From a virus (Duplodnaviria; Caudoviricetes), in IMG/VR virus record IMGVR_UViG_3300048691_000224: 64,000 nt of DNA. One strand, written 5' to 3'. Within the stretch, counting starts at the first letter, position 1. Each line of letters begins with the position of its first letter. Shown in pieces: positions 52,698 through 64,000 of this stretch. A model generated the notes under the pieces. It saw only the letters and a list, made by a program, of their open reading frames with translations. It ran no database searches and was not told the origin of the DNA. Both the position numbers and the translations under genes were made by a program.

Positions 52698-54101
52698 TTA
52701 CTTATTGGTCAAATATGATTTGTATATGATGCCGATCACACCCGAAGTGGTTTGTTGGCTGCTAACTTTAGCGATCATTGATTGAATATCTGTTATTATT
52801 TCAGCCGACATCGTTAGTGTCCGATTAATAATTTCAGGTGAATATTTGAATTCTCGTGAATCCGCGAGTTGCAATCTAAGAGTTGCTACGTGCTGCTTGA
52901 AGTTAGTGTTCAGTACCTTTGCTGATCGTAGAGCGTGCTCGAGGGCGGACACAACATCACTGCGGACTGAACTTACGTCGAGGGATGAGAAGTCAGGTGT
53001 AGTTGCCAGAAATTTTCTAATCATTGTTGGCCGAGCAAGTTGATCATACTCAAATATCTCCGATAGAGTTTTCAACAAGTCAGTATAAACTGATCCTGTT
53101 CTCGTATCGATCAATCGGAGTTCATCCGCCACCTGCTTTGGCATTGAGCTCTTTAGTTGCCCACGAATTGCAAAGTTGAAATTATTGAATGCTGTAAACA
53201 CATCCTTATCAACAATTTTAACTTGTGTATTAGTTGCAGGGTCAAACAATACTACCCCCTCGACACCCGGATCGATGCTTTTATCAACACCACCAACATC
53301 TCTCAGGGATGGAGTGAGGGTTCTGACAAATTTAATCAATAGTTCTTGTTTGATTGGGAGCTTGAAGTTGTGTAGGATTACATCACCTATCTGCTTCTTC
53401 AATGCAACAATTTCAGGTGCCCTCGATTGTAGAGCTATCAATTCTCTGATTGTTGGTGAACTCCCTGATGCTAAATCAACCGTACCGTCGAGGTATTGAT
53501 TCAGTTGAGAGATTTGCTCACTAAAGTCTACTGCAGATAATTGTTGAGTATCTAATTGTTGAGGAGTGACGAACCTCCAGGTAACTGGCTCATTTGAGTT
53601 AATTACTGTCTCTCCGTCTGTCGAAGTGTATAATTTAGTATCAATTGTCACTGTCGGAAACTTAATTCCTTTGAGAGAGGCAATGATGGAGTCAGAGTCA
53701 GGTGATAATGCCCGCAAAAATGCGATACACGACGATCCATATATAATTGCATTTGGTTGTGCGCCAAACAGTACTTCAACTTCAACTAAGGTATTTGCTG
53801 GTAATACAGGCTTCAGTAGTGGAGCGATTTGGCGCAGGGCTTGGTGTGCAGACTTAAACCCAGTCATTGCTGCGGAGTCTCCCCACTCTTCGGGGTCATA
53901 TCGCCTCGTCGCTGACCCTTTCTGTTGCCGAGAACAGAAAAGCTCCCCACCATCATCAATTCCAAATGTGAGTGCAGCACCATCTAGCTTTTCAGTAGCT
54001 ATAAATTTGGATAATCTGGTGATGACACCAATAAAAGAATCTAAATCGAGATCTTCTATGTGAGTGATTCCTTCTGAAAGATATTGCTTGAAAGATCGCA
54101 T
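52698..54101 (-). CDS. Ligase-like covalent nucleotidyltransferase with capsid-targeting-like N-terminus
   Basis: MRSFKQYLSE; TEKLDG (motif I), EGVVL (IV) and VKIVDK (V); AATAAATA upstream near 54130. Confidence 0.55.
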   Translation of the reverse strand: MRSFKQYLSEGITHIEDLDLDSFIGVITRLSKFIATEKLDGAALTFGIDDGGELFCSRQQKGSATRRYDPEEWGDSAAMTGFKSAHQALRQIAPLLKPVLPANTLVEVEVLFGAQPNAIIYGSSCIAFLRALSPDSDSIIASLKGIKFPTVTIDTKLYTSTDGETVINSNEPVTWRFVTPQQLDTQQLSAVDFSEQISQLNQYLDGTVDLASGSSPTIRELIALQSRAPEIVALKKQIGDVILHNFKLPIKQELLIKFVRTLTPSLRDVGGVDKSIDPGVEGVVLFDPATNTQVKIVDKDVFTAFNNFNFAIRGQLKSSMPKQVADELRLIDTRTGSVYTDLLKTLSEIFEYDQLARPTMIRKFLATTPDFSSLDVSSVRSDVVSALEHALRSAKVLNTNFKQHVATLRLQLADSREFKYSPEIINRTLTMSAEIITDIQSMIAKVSSQQTTSGVIGIIYKSYLTNK

Positions 54102-59607: not shown

Positions 59608-59696
59608 ATAAGTTGTGGTATAGATCCAATTGTACTCAAATAAACACGAAAGGTCAACACATCACACATACACCACATAAATAGTGCATCTACACT

Positions 59697-60689
59697 ATGA
59701 GAACATTTATGAACTTCCTGAAATACTTATCTGAAGGCATCCGAACTGCAGATTTTGCGCGTTCTATTCAACTTATCAAGCAATATCTTGAAAAATCAAC
59801 AGGCACCCTATATGCACTCCCTGAGATGGAGCACTACAAAGGCGCCGCCGGCACCGGAATTGGCTTGAGATATTTTACCGAATCAGGTAAGAGTGTTCGG
59901 TTCAACTGGACTCGCAGTGACTCAGCGTCTGTACTCGAATCCATATCTGTTTGGGATGGCTCTACCAAGCACCCCAACTTTCAGATCACAGCTATTGATG
60001 GAGCACCACTCGGGACACTATCACTGGCAACCATTCTCCCTACACTCAGTGCTGTGATCGTATCACCAAGAGTTGGTGTGGTTGAATTGTCGACTGAAGA
60101 GTCGCGTGCTCAAATCGCACTAGATGTAAAAGTACTCCGCGAATCAGAAAGTGTTTACTATGTGAATACACTATCGAAGTCCCCTGTAATATTAACTGAG
60201 GATGCGTATAGTGACGTTATTGATGCACTGAGTGCTGGTCCTGTGTCTAAGTTCAACATTTCCAAGATGGGCCGCAACCAAGAACGAATTTTCGGTGAGA
60301 TTACTCAGAAGTACAAAGATGCGTTTGATATTAAGACAGATGGTGCTGGTAGGCAGAGATTTACACTAATCGGCTCTAGTGCCGACTTTGATCGCGATGA
60401 AATTGTACAAAGTGTTCTAGATTCGGCACCCAAGAAAGGAAGAGCAGCTTTGGAGGTTCGGAGTGGTGGTGATGAATCAACGAGTACTGATTCAGAAGAT
60501 CGTGCAGCACGTGCTTACCCTGAGGCCACACAGAGTCGTATTCCTTATGAAGAGCAATTAGATGATATGAAAACCATCATCACGGCGGTAGCAAAGGGCG
60601 CAAGTAACTTCGCGATTGTATTGGGCGCTGGGGGGTTGGGAAAATGTTTGGACCCTAATTCGGAATTGGCTGGGGTATTTGGCGAGTAA
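59697..60689 (+). CDS. N-terminal half of a split AAA+ ATPase: 316-aa N-extein fused to a 14-aa N-intein
   Basis: Ends ...IVLGAGGLGK|CLDPNSELAGVFGE*. Walker A is cut before its Thr. Cys1 at 60645-60647 starts an intein block A pattern. Confidence 0.88.
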   Translation: MRTFMNFLKYLSEGIRTADFARSIQLIKQYLEKSTGTLYALPEMEHYKGAAGTGIGLRYFTESGKSVRFNWTRSDSASVLESISVWDGSTKHPNFQITAIDGAPLGTLSLATILPTLSAVIVSPRVGVVELSTEESRAQIALDVKVLRESESVYYVNTLSKSPVILTEDAYSDVIDALSAGPVSKFNISKMGRNQERIFGEITQKYKDAFDIKTDGAGRQRFTLIGSSADFDRDEIVQSVLDSAPKKGRAALEVRSGGDESTSTDSEDRAARAYPEATQSRIPYEEQLDDMKTIITAVAKGASNFAIVLGAGGLGKCLDPNSELAGVFGE

Positions 60690-60755
60690 CTCCTCAAATA
60701 TCACTACCCCTTCCTGATCCACCAGGTCCGAGTAGCACACAACTATGGAATGTTG

Positions 60756-60793
60756 TATAAATATAGGGTTAGCAATCAACCCTATATTTTATA
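60756..60793 (+). promoter_or_regulatory. T4-type late promoter overlapped by a hairpin abutting the endonuclease start codon
   Basis: TATAAATA at 60756-60763; 12-bp perfect inverted repeat at 60759-60770 / 60778-60789. Confidence 0.75.
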
Positions 60794-62052
60794 TGACAAC
60801 AATAACCAAAGTAACCCGTGTAGCAAACACACCCAACACTATTATCGAACTTTCCACTCCCGACGAAGTACTAGAATATTGTTTCATTCGAGAACTTTTG
60901 TATCGACACGAATGGAGGGGCTGGTTTCCTGAAACTCTACACAACGTGCAAGTGTTCTTGGATACAACTCCAACAATATCCCAAACTAAGGGGGATCTTG
61001 CATTGAGGTTTGGGGTAATTAACCCCAACAAAACAGCAAAACCCAACAATGTAGAACACTGGATTCGCCGAGGATGGAGCGAAGATGATGCAAAGCACTA
61101 CATATCTGAGCAACAAAAATCTCGCAATGCTATTAAGCAACTGGAACTAAATTTAGATCACTGGATTGGATTAGGACATTCTATAGAAGAAGCGCGTGTG
61201 TTGGTTGATGATAAGCGGTATGGATTTACAGCAAGGCGCCCAGAGTATTGGGTAAAGCGAGGATACTCATACGAAGAGGCAGTTGAACAAGTCACGGCAC
61301 ATCAGGGAGCACATTCTCCTAAAACTATTGGATATTGGGAACAGCAAGGTTGCTCTCGAGAGCAGGCCACGAAGGAGGTTCAAAAAGTTCAACAACATGC
61401 AGCAGACGGCGCCAAAGCGGCTTGGAAGGCAGGACTGATTGATAAAAGTACACGCAACACAAACTTACAATATTGGGTCAACAAGTGCAATGGCAATGTT
61501 GAACAAGCGGAAGTTTTATTGTCTAATAGACAACGAACCTTTTCACTGGACATCTGCATCGAAAAGTATGGGGAAGTCGACGGGTTGATTAGGTTCAAGG
61601 AACGTCAAGCACTATGGCACAAAAACTTTAAGAAACAAAATTATAGTAAGATATCACAGGTGCTGTTTGATGGGGTTTGCCAAATGCTGCCTGATACGAT
61701 CAAGGAATTACCGATATATTATGCAACCAGGGTAATTGGTAACGATACAGATATCAAGAATAACGAATTTACTCTAGAACTCCAAGAAACATTTTGTAAG
61801 CCTGATTTCTATATTCCAGATTTGGAATTAATCATTGAGTTTGATGGGCAATATTACCATCGGACTGACGATTACACATATTACACAGCTGATAAAAAGC
61901 GTAGGGATGACAAAATATTAGAAATGTATCCTAACATGTTAATCAGTCATATTACAGAGACGGAGTTTAATGCGGATGCGATGGCGGTTATTAAGCGTGT
62001 TGTTGATACAATTCAAACCCGTCACAAAGCTTTTAGTACTCAGTTCCAGTGA
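60793..62052 (+). CDS. Free-standing Vsr/EDxHD-like (DUF559-type) homing endonuclease with N-terminal tandem repeats
   Basis: Repeats of (H/Y)W..xG.S.EEA; C-terminal KPDFYIPDLELIIEFDGQYYH; start placed at ATG 60793, downstream of the late promoter. Confidence 0.82.
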   Translation: MTTITKVTRVANTPNTIIELSTPDEVLEYCFIRELLYRHEWRGWFPETLHNVQVFLDTTPTISQTKGDLALRFGVINPNKTAKPNNVEHWIRRGWSEDDAKHYISEQQKSRNAIKQLELNLDHWIGLGHSIEEARVLVDDKRYGFTARRPEYWVKRGYSYEEAVEQVTAHQGAHSPKTIGYWEQQGCSREQATKEVQKVQQHAADGAKAAWKAGLIDKSTRNTNLQYWVNKCNGNVEQAEVLLSNRQRTFSLDICIEKYGEVDGLIRFKERQALWHKNFKKQNYSKISQVLFDGVCQMLPDTIKELPIYYATRVIGNDTDIKNNEFTLELQETFCKPDFYIPDLELIIEFDGQYYHRTDDYTYYTADKKRRDDKILEMYPNMLISHITETEFNADAMAVIKRVVDTIQTRHKAFSTQFQ

Positions 62053-62055
62053 ACA

Positions 62056-62083
62056 AAAAAAAAGCGCCTCAGGCGCTTTTTTT
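62056..62083. terminator. Bidirectional Rho-independent terminator
   Basis: A-run, AAGCGCC-TCA-GGCGCTT, T-run, between convergent genes. Confidence 0.8.
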
Positions 62084-62107
62084 ATAACACTCTGTGATTT
62101 ATTTAAA

Positions 62108-62710
62108 TCAGAGCTTACCGTTTGGTGTAAATGTCCCCGTCATCGCACCGTGAACATATTCCAGATACTGTTCACCATCTCTCGTTACAGGATTCCCTTC
62201 CAGACCTGGTATGGAGCCAACCTTGGCAATCATTCCAGCTTCACAAACCTTACCCACGACAGTGTTACCGATAATCTGGCCAGTGATTGATACACCTGCG
62301 GGTGATGCCATTCCGATTTTACCGTCAGGCATCACGCCACCCGTAACCGGAAAGTGTTCATCACTAAACACTGTGATCCAAGATTTATCTGTCTTCTGCC
62401 CATTTGCATCGATTTCAAATGCATAGTGTCCACTCAACCAAATTCCGCCGTCAGGTGAACCTCCGCCAAGCACAGCATTATCAATTGAGTCGTCTCCTGT
62501 CACAGTGTGCCCGTGATTAACGAGACTTGTGTTGCGTGCAGCAATGCGAGCTTCGTGTGAAGGCATCGTGAATGACCCCACAAGTGTTCCTGGATAATAT
62601 TTAACGGGCTCGGGAGCGGCGGGGGTTTGAACTTTAGGGCTGAAGTAGCCTAATTTGTACCCACGATATCCCAAGTACCCTAATACGATGAATAAGAATG
62701 CGAAAAACAT
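62108..62710 (-). CDS. Membrane-anchored beta-rich hypothetical protein (paralogue A)
   Basis: N-terminal TM segment; Gly-rich beta pattern shared with 62723-63271. Confidence 0.65.
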   Translation of the reverse strand: MFFAFLFIVLGYLGYRGYKLGYFSPKVQTPAAPEPVKYYPGTLVGSFTMPSHEARIAARNTSLVNHGHTVTGDDSIDNAVLGGGSPDGGIWLSGHYAFEIDANGQKTDKSWITVFSDEHFPVTGGVMPDGKIGMASPAGVSITGQIIGNTVVGKVCEAGMIAKVGSIPGLEGNPVTRDGEQYLEYVHGAMTGTFTPNGKL

Positions 62711-62722
62711 ATTAAAATTCCT

Positions 62723-63271
62723 TTAGTTAATGATGGCTTCGTCACACGGAGGGCGGAGCTCACCTGTCATATTACCTGCAATCAGTTGGTGTGCTCCACA
62801 GGCTACACCTGTTAATTTACCATACTTGATTATACCCTCACACGATAACCCATACGATCCATACGCCAGATGGAATGTTCCGTCATAATTAACCTTGCCG
62901 CTGATTATGGTTTCCTTGCGGGTGGTGTGTTGTGTTTTTACCCAACCAGATGTAATTGCTCCAGTGTGGTCGATTGTGAAGCTGAACTCACCAATCAAGA
63001 ATACACCTCCGTGCTCCCCCGCGAGACCTGTTGCTGTATTATCAGTGACGTTGCTAATTTTTGGAAATGATGGAACGTAGAGGCGCTCACCAAGGTATGC
63101 GTCCCTCAGCGATAACAGATAGTACTCATCACTACTTGGTGGACATATCGTACCTTCGACGACTCCTTGGTGGGGGTTAGTATACTGTGGGATGTGGGTA
63201 GGCTCTGGTGGTTGGTTACCTACCCAGAGTGCAGACCAAATACGGCGGGCGATGGAAATAATTGAATTCAT
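62723..63271 (-). CDS. Beta-rich hypothetical protein (paralogue B)
   Basis: GVFLIGEFSFTIDHTG..W..GKVNYDG..GNMTG aligns with paralogue A; CTAAATA upstream at 63296-63302. Confidence 0.65.
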   Translation of the reverse strand: MNSIISIARRIWSALWVGNQPPEPTHIPQYTNPHQGVVEGTICPPSSDEYYLLSLRDAYLGERLYVPSFPKISNVTDNTATGLAGEHGGVFLIGEFSFTIDHTGAITSGWVKTQHTTRKETIISGKVNYDGTFHLAYGSYGLSCEGIIKYGKLTGVACGAHQLIAGNMTGELRPPCDEAIIN

Positions 63272-63295
63272 GAGGAGGGATTTTTAATGGCTTCT

Positions 63296-63325
63296 TATTT
63301 AGTAAGCACTGCTGTGGTATAAATA
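63296..63325. promoter_or_regulatory. Back-to-back divergent late promoters
   Basis: CTAAATA on the minus strand (63296-63302) and TATAAATA on the plus strand (63318-63325). Confidence 0.65.
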
Positions 63326-63347
63326 GTGATTTACAGCAGGTACACTT

Positions 63348-64000
63348 ATGCACAATCTCGAAATTCGTTCCTTCCTTCAATTGGCGGAACACGTAAAACA
63401 AAATTTATCAATTGATGAATTAGAATTAAACAAACTATATGACACTCGAGAATTCGATTGGTTGATTCGCGATCAAGAGAATTGCCTAATTCCTGTGATT
63501 GGTCTGATTCGCAAGCAAGCCAAATTAATTGAATTTGAATTTTCTACCGGTGAGACTGTAGTGTGTGCAGATCATCACATGTTTGCTACTAATGCACGGA
63601 ATGATGTCATCGTCGCAAGTGAAATGAAGGTTGGTGATCTATTAGCCAAGACATCTGGTGACATCGCCGTGGTAGTTTCTAAAATTTCCACAGGTGTTGT
63701 TAGTGATGTCTATGATATCCAAGTGCAATCTGAGAAGATGTTGTATAGCGACGCCGCAGGTTTTGTTCACCACAATACTCACACTGTTGAGGAAACTCTT
63801 CAAAATCTAGGCTTATCAGACGGCGATGGTTATTTTAAGAACACTTCATCAGGATCTGCTGCTGGTCTATACAAGACACTCTTTATGAATCGTACTGGAA
63901 TTGTGGTTCTTGATGATTGTGACACGATCGTATCTACCCAAGAAGGTCGCAACTTACTGAAAGCTGCACTGGATACTAAGAAGAAGCGTAAATTAGTTTG
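63348..64000 (+). CDS. C-terminal half of the split AAA+ ATPase: 143-aa C-intein plus C-extein (partial, runs off the window)
   Basis: Manual translation: MHNLEIRSF...TVVCADHHMF (block B)...VYDIQV (block F)...FVHHN|THTVEETL...IVVLDDCD (Walker B)...LLKAALDT. Asn at 63774-63776, Thr+1 at 63777. Absent from the ORF track because it has no stop in the window. Confidence 0.9.
   Translation, partial: MHNLEIRSFLQLAEHVKQNLSIDELELNKLYDTREFDWLIRDQENCLIPVIGLIRKQAKLIEFEFSTGETVVCADHHMFATNARNDVIVASEMKVGDLLAKTSGDIAVVVSKISTGVVSDVYDIQVQSEKMLYSDAAGFVHHNTHTVEETLQNLGLSDGDGYFKNTSSGSAAGLYKTLFMNRTGIVVLDDCDTIVSTQEGRNLLKAALDTKKKRKLV

Follow-up and report, generated by a model that had tools for sequence, protein, structure and literature searches.

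A phage ATPase gene fractured at its Walker A motif carries the two pieces of a probable trans-splicing intein with a 14-residue N-terminal fragment

The stretch of DNA analysed here (64,000 nt, hereafter the window) comes from the viral record IMGVR_UViG_3300048691_000224 (Duplodnaviria; Caudoviricetes) and carries a P-loop ATPase gene of the AAA type that is broken into two separate open reading frames (ORFs), each of them fused to one piece of an intein. The N-terminal intein fragment (IntN) has 14 amino acids (aa) and the C-terminal fragment (IntC) has 143. Taken together, the anatomy of the locus, homology, fold, conservation and population data make it likely that these pieces form a functional split intein that splices in trans. 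More tentatively, and with slightly less than even confidence, it is proposed that the functional core of IntN comprises only 12 residues (C-x4-[ST]-x-L-x-[GIV]-x-hydrophobic), below any natural split-intein fragment tested, and that one naturally promiscuous IntC would pair with either CLDPNSELAGVFGE or CQIGTTELLGKFE, the IntN residues from 2 to the end travelling with an endonuclease gene.

The first reading frame, ORF1 (59697-60689, + strand, 330 aa), has a C-terminal end consisting of ASNFAIVLGAGGLGK followed by CLDPNSELAGVFGE and a TAA stop codon. The second, ORF2, opens with an ATG at 63348 that is preceded by an in-frame TGA (63327-63329). Its first 143 aa end in AAGFVHHN, with the HHN/T boundary at 63768-63779 (a slash marks an intein-extein or extein-extein junction throughout), and are followed by THTVEETL and GIVVLDDCD before the frame leaves the window; the complete product of this C-half (P0020) has 356 aa. 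Both frames are separated by 2658 nt containing three other genes, and each intein piece is fused to its own extein. The initial annotation of this DNA, which had been made from the letters and their ORFs, already described how ORF1 stops just after GAGGLGK-CLDPNSELAGVFGE and how ORF2 encodes 143 aa ending in HHN and then THTVEE and VVLDDCD, and all of these sequence statements hold. A refinement concerns the start of ORF1, in which there are two in-frame ATGs (59697 and 59709). The true start is probably the second one, giving an N-half of 326 rather than 330 aa, because the relatives begin with MNF or MKF and one gene call also starts there. Read-through of the TAA codon into the endonuclease gene that follows was rejected, as that gene lies in another frame.

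The two ORFs are well supported by sequence comparison as parts of one ATPase, cut between the Lys and the Thr of its Walker A motif, because both exteins align colinearly with homologues that have no interruption and show GK/T exactly at the junction. Alignment with intein-free homologues had been suggested earlier as a check, and it came out in favour of a single protein. For example, the intact allele on contig L085 is a single gene of 511 aa that reads GAGGLGKTHTVEE, in the context ILGAGGLGKTHTVEETL, with 56% identity to the window N-extein and 90% to the C-extein; in the window, splicing had been predicted to restore GAGGLGK/T, a canonical Walker A. Another example is an uninterrupted homologue of 439 aa in a 642-kb uncultured phage, whose N-terminus matches ORF1 and whose GMAGVGK/TATV aligns exactly at the proposed extein junction. 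In the homologous ATPase of a distant relative, P0096, the same GK/THTVE site is occupied by an unsplit intein of the same family (GEAGVGK/CVSYDTVIPIHV...HHN/THTVE). When the ATPase sequences were clustered at 90% identity, 12 clusters were intact (503-513 aa) versus six of N-halves (315-330 aa). The family matches phrog_1250 (E=6.7e-13) and, weakly, AAA_16, AAA_22 and AAA, and an NCBIfam search of the intact ATPase and of the C-part gave nothing meaningful. Among phage records, tblastn with the N-half found no match, and with the C-half its only matches were distant homologues from T4-like and jumbo phages, none of which has an intein. In the window, Walker A (GAGGLGK/T) and Walker B (VVLDDCD) would come to stand in one chain only after ligation, whereas the L085 protein has both without it.

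The window pieces are supported, by sequence and by structural models, as a class 1, cysteine-dependent intein with a HINT fold, because Cys1, the block B His, blocks F and G with HHN, Thr+1 and the fold itself are all kept. Cys1 directly follows GLGK in the window. In an alignment of 70 IntC sequences there is no variation at K56, at the block B residue H77, or at H142 and N143, and hardly any at Y122, D123, G138 and H141. Position +1 is occupied by T, S or C in the matches that align to the intein end, and by Thr in the window. The Thr position of the block B motif TxxH is Cys in the window (CADH) and Ala in the family consensus (AxxH). A search of 1.8 billion representative proteins with IntC produced 82 protein matches at E<=1e-3. 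The search against intein profiles that had been suggested in the initial annotation gave a match between IntC and Pfam Intein_splicing (E=2e-4), although below the gathering score, and the comparison of IntC with PDB by sequence was marginal only (gp41-1 intein, E=0.97; Cat, E=1.1). An AlphaFold model of IntC built on the 70-sequence alignment reached a predicted local distance difference test (pLDDT) value of 92.8, and in Foldseek it had 53 PDB matches at E<=1e-3 (best 3e-6), all 50 of those listed being inteins or HINT/BIL domains. For VidaL (6vgv) the root-mean-square deviation (rmsd) was 1.9 A; its identity of 24% and that of the Cat intein (23%) are among the highest in the list of matches. 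The model of the unsplit P0096 intein (pLDDT 92.8) has a complete intein fold and matches VidaL with a TM score of 0.80 by target. A prediction of the complex between the N-extein tail plus IntN (34 aa) and IntC plus 22 aa of extein scored 0.10, with controls not run, and is evidence neither way. In summary of these hallmarks, the fold and the relatives agree with the two-piece intein across a fractured ATPase gene that had been put forward initially, and trans-splicing itself is inferred.

The models also locate the break point. In P0096, a strand at intein residues 7-12 is followed by an extra helix and loop (approximately 14-34) and then by a short strand and helix alpha1. The window IntN corresponds to the first 12 residues of the unsplit relatives and bears block A only, and in the window IntC the short strand and the helix (H9-20 of its model) come first. 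On these models the break lies between the beta1-beta2 hairpin on one side and the short strand with alpha1 on the other, which is the S1 position; with this refinement, the earlier placement of the split after the first beta-strand was close enough. S1, defined as "immediately following beta2", is already known for VidaL and PolB16 (PMC13014065), and therefore the split point of the window is not new.

With 14 aa, the window IntN does lie at or below the short end of the natural examples, as had been anticipated, since the shortest characterised ones have 15 aa (PolB16) and 16 aa (VidaL) (PMC13014065, PMC10189870). Eight IntN alleles could be compared. Seven of them occupy the window insertion site: those of the window (CLDPNSELAGVFGE, 14 aa), L093 (CQIGTTELLGKFE, 13 aa), L087 (CLRSNSILAGEF, 12 aa), L083 (CQLGTTNLIGSWGICGV, 17 aa), L089 (CFCTLNKLHVTLGKVE, 16 aa), L090 (CLDPNTKLLISLGNDKLL, 18 aa) and L084 (CASSAVLLNGSFKNWEKSLA, 20 aa). 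The eighth, from L095 (CFCLDTELDIIE, 12 aa; L095:3565-5580), is at a second insertion point of this ATPase family (GGAGG/.../TGKTH), which lies three residues further upstream. All eight have Cys1, Leu8 and a hydrophobic residue 12, and most of them also Ser or Thr at position 6 and Gly10; the pattern of Cys1 with hydrophobic residues at 8 and 12 is also found in the unsplit relatives and in VidaL (CLPKEAVVQIRL+TKKG). Past position 12 the alleles have tails of 0-8 residues that are unrelated to each other, as would be expected if translation merely continued to the nearest stop codon of the inserted DNA. The functional core of IntN is therefore probably formed by the 12 residues in front of these tails, as far as the aligned alleles indicate. 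In the wider family there are also IntN with 23 aa (UvsX-like) and with 26 aa (PhoH).

The association of the pieces, their splicing and the timing of their expression would proceed as follows. The N-half would be made with a 14-residue tail that represents the beta1-beta2 hairpin of the intein and bears the Cys1 nucleophile, and the C-half would be made from its own start, probably from its own late promoter, with 143 intein residues in front. The short tail would then dock into the incomplete HINT fold, and splicing would take its usual four steps: Cys1 would undergo an N-S acyl shift, transesterification to Thr+1 and cyclisation of Asn143 would come next, and an O-N shift would be the last. 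The outcome would be an ATPase of 525-529 aa whose GAGGLGKT loop is intact, with release of the two intein pieces. Between the halves, the gap is occupied by a homing endonuclease gene of Vsr-like type, which would have a promoter and a hairpin switch to itself, and by two cargo genes of the opposite strand.

This arrangement could be imitated by a contiguous intein with an endonuclease domain that was misassembled or mis-called, and the initial annotation had named a misassembly of 60690-63347 as something that would overturn it; indeed, the window is a metagenomic assembly and the comparison is one of contigs. However, a JGI contig that belongs to a different record (L091) aligns colinearly along 4.3 kb with 96.4% nucleotide identity and has the same stop, the same spacer and the same gap genes, including the out-of-frame endonuclease gene, the two opposite-strand genes and the separate start of the C-half. 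Window-type sequence is moreover tiled by contigs of other runs (X4) with the same layout, presumably from a different assembler, and six further lineages share the split point and differ in the contents of the gap. Since contigs, samples and lineages independent of the window have this layout too, misassembly does not account for it, and an artefact of this kind is hardly conceivable. A second alternative is that the endonuclease gene invaded and destroyed the ATPase gene, of which the ORFs would be decaying remnants. The ATPase (phrog_1250) has no known function and might be dispensable, and intact alleles outnumber the split ones by 12 to six among the 90% clusters found. On the other hand, the substitutions between window and L091 point clearly to purifying selection on both halves since the split, with 23 synonymous to 2 non-synonymous differences in the N-half and 16 to 5 in the C-half (the endonuclease gene has 19 to 10). 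Five of the split lineages were compared with each other, and their synonymous sites are saturated (difference of about 0.75), while the non-synonymous difference is 0.24-0.43 in IntC and 0.08-0.20 in the C-extein. Seven split alleles of the window site, these five among them, keep both ORFs open, including lineages that lack the endonuclease gene. In fact, this gene is absent between the halves in L087 and in L095, where the gap is only 12 nt, and the split intein is kept. The halves are thus intact despite saturated synonymous sites, and therefore the split form is maintained. Decay, which is considered very unlikely, is rejected together with misassembly because of the independent contigs, the selection counts and the retention of the split intein without the endonuclease gene.

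It might also be that the intein pieces no longer splice and act as a non-covalent docking module only, as in NrdA of phage Aeh1 (PMC3045599), which is regarded as improbable. Phage enzymes in fragments that come together unligated have been described (PMC3045599), Dassa et al. (PMC2677866) report an SbcD-like gene that is interrupted by a Vsr-like endonuclease gene but by no intein, and the high variability of IntN would suit a docking function. Nevertheless, residues that are needed for catalysis only are kept (Cys1 in 8/8 alleles; the block B His77 and, at the end of IntC, His142 and Asn143 in 70/70 sequences; and the +1 nucleophile), and an unspliced insertion of 157 residues within the P-loop would be hard to square with nucleotide binding. 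Several points do weigh against a functional intein. IntN is poorly conserved beyond three to five positions, which is readable as decay, although the positions that are conserved coincide with those conserved in the unsplit relatives. The sequence-profile support falls under curated thresholds (21.5 bits with Pfam Intein_splicing against a gathering cut-off of 35.8), and the block B Thr is replaced (CADHH), most of the family having Ala or Ser there; the splicing-competent VidaL has CAFNH at this place. Finally, RNA evidence is negligible, with three small contigs from one metatranscriptome run that possibly represent DNA carry-over. A split intein that splices in trans nonetheless remains the preferred reading of the locus.

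Its evolution appears to be linked to that of the endonuclease gene. In L093, which comes from the same sample as L091, the N-extein protein is identical to that of the window, and so is the C-half over the 217 residues available. The DNA of both is 97.8% identical up to 60646 and 99.4% identical from 62021, with an unrelated 1.4 kb between, in which L093 has its 13-aa IntN and a different endonuclease allele of 443 aa. Contigs of two other runs have the same joint, from 60634 to 62021 with 1512 other letters between, and in these runs the depth of the alternative cassette is about 40-46 versus 11-14, as far as such rough contig depths can tell. The LGK codons just 5' of the joint have synonymous differences between the alleles, as expected for co-conversion beside a homing site. 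According to these comparisons, IntN residues 2-14 and the endonuclease gene are exchanged together as one cassette, and therefore an identical IntC meets at least two IntN (14 and 13 aa) in co-occurring strains. From this joint movement it is proposed that one IntC may work with different IntN in such strains.

The endonuclease itself combines W-rich helical repeats at its N-terminus with, at its C-terminus, a nuclease motif of Vsr-like type (PDFYIP...EFDG.YYH), which is kept as PDF[YF].P...EFD..Y.H in five endonuclease alleles. It matches phrog_559 and phrog_3339 in PHROG and, weakly, the Vsr family TIGR00632 (E=0.009), and its relatives have weak matches to MTES_1575 (2.8e-4), DUF559 (3.5e-3) and Vsr (0.13). 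The assignment to a Vsr-like family is weak, because no PDB match was found by sequence or by family profile. In L083 the endonuclease gene (L083:7019-8323) lies on the strand opposite to both ATPase halves, which departs from the fractured-gene arrangement in the literature.

Regarding the control of the locus, the initial annotation had noted a late-promoter-like motif in front of each half. These motifs are present (CATAAATA at 59676-59683 and TATAAATA at 63318-63325), and an NTAAATA motif is kept 20-45 nt upstream of the N-half in seven relatives, as well as upstream of the endonuclease gene and of the C-half in relatives, a conservation that favours the promoter reading. However, TATAAATA is not enriched, with 2 copies in the 64-kb window versus 2.9 expected, and because of this count the reading of T4 consensus late promoters throughout is unsupported and was rejected. 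One of the copies stands 5' of the C-half and the other in the 5' arm of the hairpin at 60751-60798 (-19.6 kcal/mol, z = -5.5), and the exact 10-mer ATAAATAGTG occurs in the window only 5' of the two halves (in the 59676 motif and at 63319). The hairpin at the endonuclease start, with the TATAAATA that it contains, resembles the late-promoter-and-hairpin control of T4 I-TevI. In relatives an analogous motif and hairpin precede the endonuclease gene, for example CATAAATAGTA plus a hairpin in L084 and L089. The terminator hairpin at 62057-62083 has a fold of -15.1 kcal/mol (z = -5.7). Late co-expression of both halves may be inferred from these elements.

The locus is present, whole or partly, in 24 runs, all of them freshwater metagenomes, and the deposited phage records contain no close DNA match to it by megablast. 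The longest contig carrying the ATPase halves has 221 kb, and the neighbours of the ATPase locus in relatives are a gp41/DnaB-like helicase, Rnl1 and rIIB; these features together suggest a large T4-like phage. The coordinates of its features are collected in Table 1.

Table 1. Features of the fractured ATPase locus in the window.
Feature	Position	Strand	Remarks
Late-promoter-like motif CATAAATAGTG 5' of N-half	59676-59686	+	From sequence
N-extein, P-loop/AAA-type ATPase	59697-60644	+	316 aa from first ATG; Walker A GAGGLGK at its end
IntN CLDPNSELAGVFGE, 14 aa, plus TAA	60645-60689	+	Cys codon 60645-60647; stop 60687-60689
Exchangeable cassette (IntN residues 2-14 plus endonuclease gene)	60647-62020	+	L093-window comparison
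Free-standing homing endonuclease gene	60745-62052	+	435 aa from first ATG; probable start 60793, 419 aa
Hairpin containing TATAAATA (60756-60763), reaching endonuclease start codon 60793	60751-60798	+	RNA fold
Two-way terminator hairpin between endonuclease gene and minus-strand ORFs	62057-62083	.	A-run, GC stem, T-run
Cargo ORF, 200 aa, N-terminal hydrophobic segment	62108-62710	-	ORF list
Cargo ORF, 182 aa	62723-63271	-	ORF list
Late-promoter-like motif TATAAATAGTG 5' of C-half	63318-63328	+	From sequence
IntC, 143 aa: helix alpha1, block B CADHH, block F VYDIQV, block G FVHHN	63348-63776	+	Alignment, model
C-extein, begins THTVEE, Walker B VVLDDCD	63777-64000	+	Continues beyond window; 213 aa in full

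The two cargo ORFs of the gap are apparently paralogues, judging by common motifs recognised by eye. The 200-aa ORF has no Pfam or PHROG match, and its Atlas scores (<0.8) are uninformative; it also lies in the gap of L083, L087, L091 and L093. The pair is found in these same four contigs and is absent from L084, L089 and L090. Between window and L091, the 182-aa ORF has 14 synonymous and 18 non-synonymous differences, which makes it the fastest-changing gene of the locus.

Other observations concern the ATPase gene and its surroundings. In P0027, a C-half of the same ATPase family, a second intein start stands directly after Walker B (DDSDS/CDGDTIID), so that there are two intein sites in one gene. 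Directly 3' of the intact allele of L085, an ORF of 169 aa (L085:7674-8183) has a GIY-YIG-like N-terminus (IYTIY...YIG) and is possibly another free-standing homing endonuclease adjoining the same gene. In the window, an ORF of 467 aa (52698-54101, - strand) starts with MRSFKQYLSEGI and the ATPase (59697-59740, + strand) with MRTFMNFLKYLSEGI, and the N-terminal motif common to both recalls the capsid-targeting leaders of T4, which are cleaved after L-x-E.

The family to which this intein belongs is a large one. Out of the 82 clusters related to IntC (P0022-P0101), 68 start with it, two of these 68 being contig-end fragments. In the 68 the C-part has HHN at its end, or in a few cases SHN or NHN, and the next residue, at sites that are P-loop-like, is T, S or C. 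Among the downstream proteins are PhoH, known from its Pfam record, and others that by eye are SNF2-, DnaB- and UvsX-like. Atypically split P-loop inteins would therefore be far commoner in phage metagenomes than the characterised handful. As to the significance of the window locus, an IntN record that is shorter by one residue is in itself minor, and the chief points are the 12-residue core, the pairing of one IntC with two IntN and the cassette exchange. A short IntN is accessible by peptide synthesis and adds little bulk to a target protein. Natural IntN of 12, 13 and 14 aa would be on offer here versus the characterised ones of 15-16 aa, the gain over the 11-aa fragment of M86 (see below) being modest. 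The natural hint that several IntN may be accepted by one IntC bears on orthogonality and tag design and, if both pairs do splice, this would be a natural system of one receiver and many tags, in which endonuclease turnover drives the evolution of IntN. The locus is also an instance in which selection has retained a split intein although its endonuclease gene was lost, and in which the gap serves as landing site for unrelated cargo genes.

Among characterised inteins, the closest parallel is VidaL (PDB 6VGV), which was characterised by Neugebauer 2017 and Burton 2020, as cited in PMC13014065; the comparison with its sequence was made by visual inspection and by way of the fold search against PDB. 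VidaL is likewise natural and cysteine-dependent, with an S1 split after beta2 and before alpha1, its IntN consists of a 12-residue core plus a short tail (CLPKEAVVQIRLTKKG, 16 aa; PMC10264447 supplement), its C-part opens with a strand and helix alpha1, and it resides in the P-loop of an ATPase of a T4-like phage, the exteins used there being ESG/SGKG. The window differs in its host protein, an uncharacterised AAA-type ATPase, in its insertion point (GK/T), in the length of IntN (14 aa, and 12-13 in relatives, versus 16), in having Thr rather than Ser at +1 and HHN rather than SHN at the end of IntC, and in an identity of only about 24%. Another natural atypical split of the S1 type is PolB16 OarG (PDB 8CPN/8CPO), whose 15-aa IntN was the shortest characterised as of 2023 (PMC10189870) and was still called "record-short" in 2026 (PMC13014065). 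In contrast to the window, PolB16 is cysteine-less (Ser1) and interrupts a PolB polymerase of a sheep gut metagenome, and it matches the window IntC model more weakly (TM 0.53/0.51, rmsd 7.1 A). AceL-TerL, GOS-TerL and the consensus intein Cat (PDB 6DSL) are also natural atypical splits from phages, with N-parts of 25-37 aa, although they have the S2 split after alpha1 and lie at Walker B of a terminase (PMC13014065). The reported natural N-parts of atypically split inteins thus have 15-37 aa (PMC13014065, PMC10189870). Ssp DnaB M86 has an ultra-short N-part of 11 aa used for semisynthesis (PMC13014065), but it was artificially split and evolved; an N-part of 12-14 aa is thus within engineering reach.

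The organisation of the locus resembles the fractured genes described by Dassa et al. in 2009 (PMC2677866), in which an endonuclease family of the Vsr type (weakly assigned in the present case), own control elements including hairpins, one locus without endonuclease gene and allelic split inteins at one insertion point were also found. In those loci, however, all inteins but one are split canonically, with an N-part of 88-105 aa, and only the terminase locus is atypical; besides, the three genes lie on one strand, whereas the window gap adds two ORFs on the opposite strand. The simple fractured-gene form, with one strand and the endonuclease gene alone in the gap, is seen in L084, L089 and L090. 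The ATPase host of the window is outside the eight enzyme types of that paper, and the exchange of IntN and endonuclease gene between nearly identical genomes is not in its description of fractured genes. Therefore, the kind of element, an S1 atypical split in a fractured gene, is already known; what differs from the known cases is the host protein, the insertion site, the IntN of 14 aa (12-13 aa in relatives), the cargo genes, the variable orientation of the endonuclease gene and the cassette exchange.

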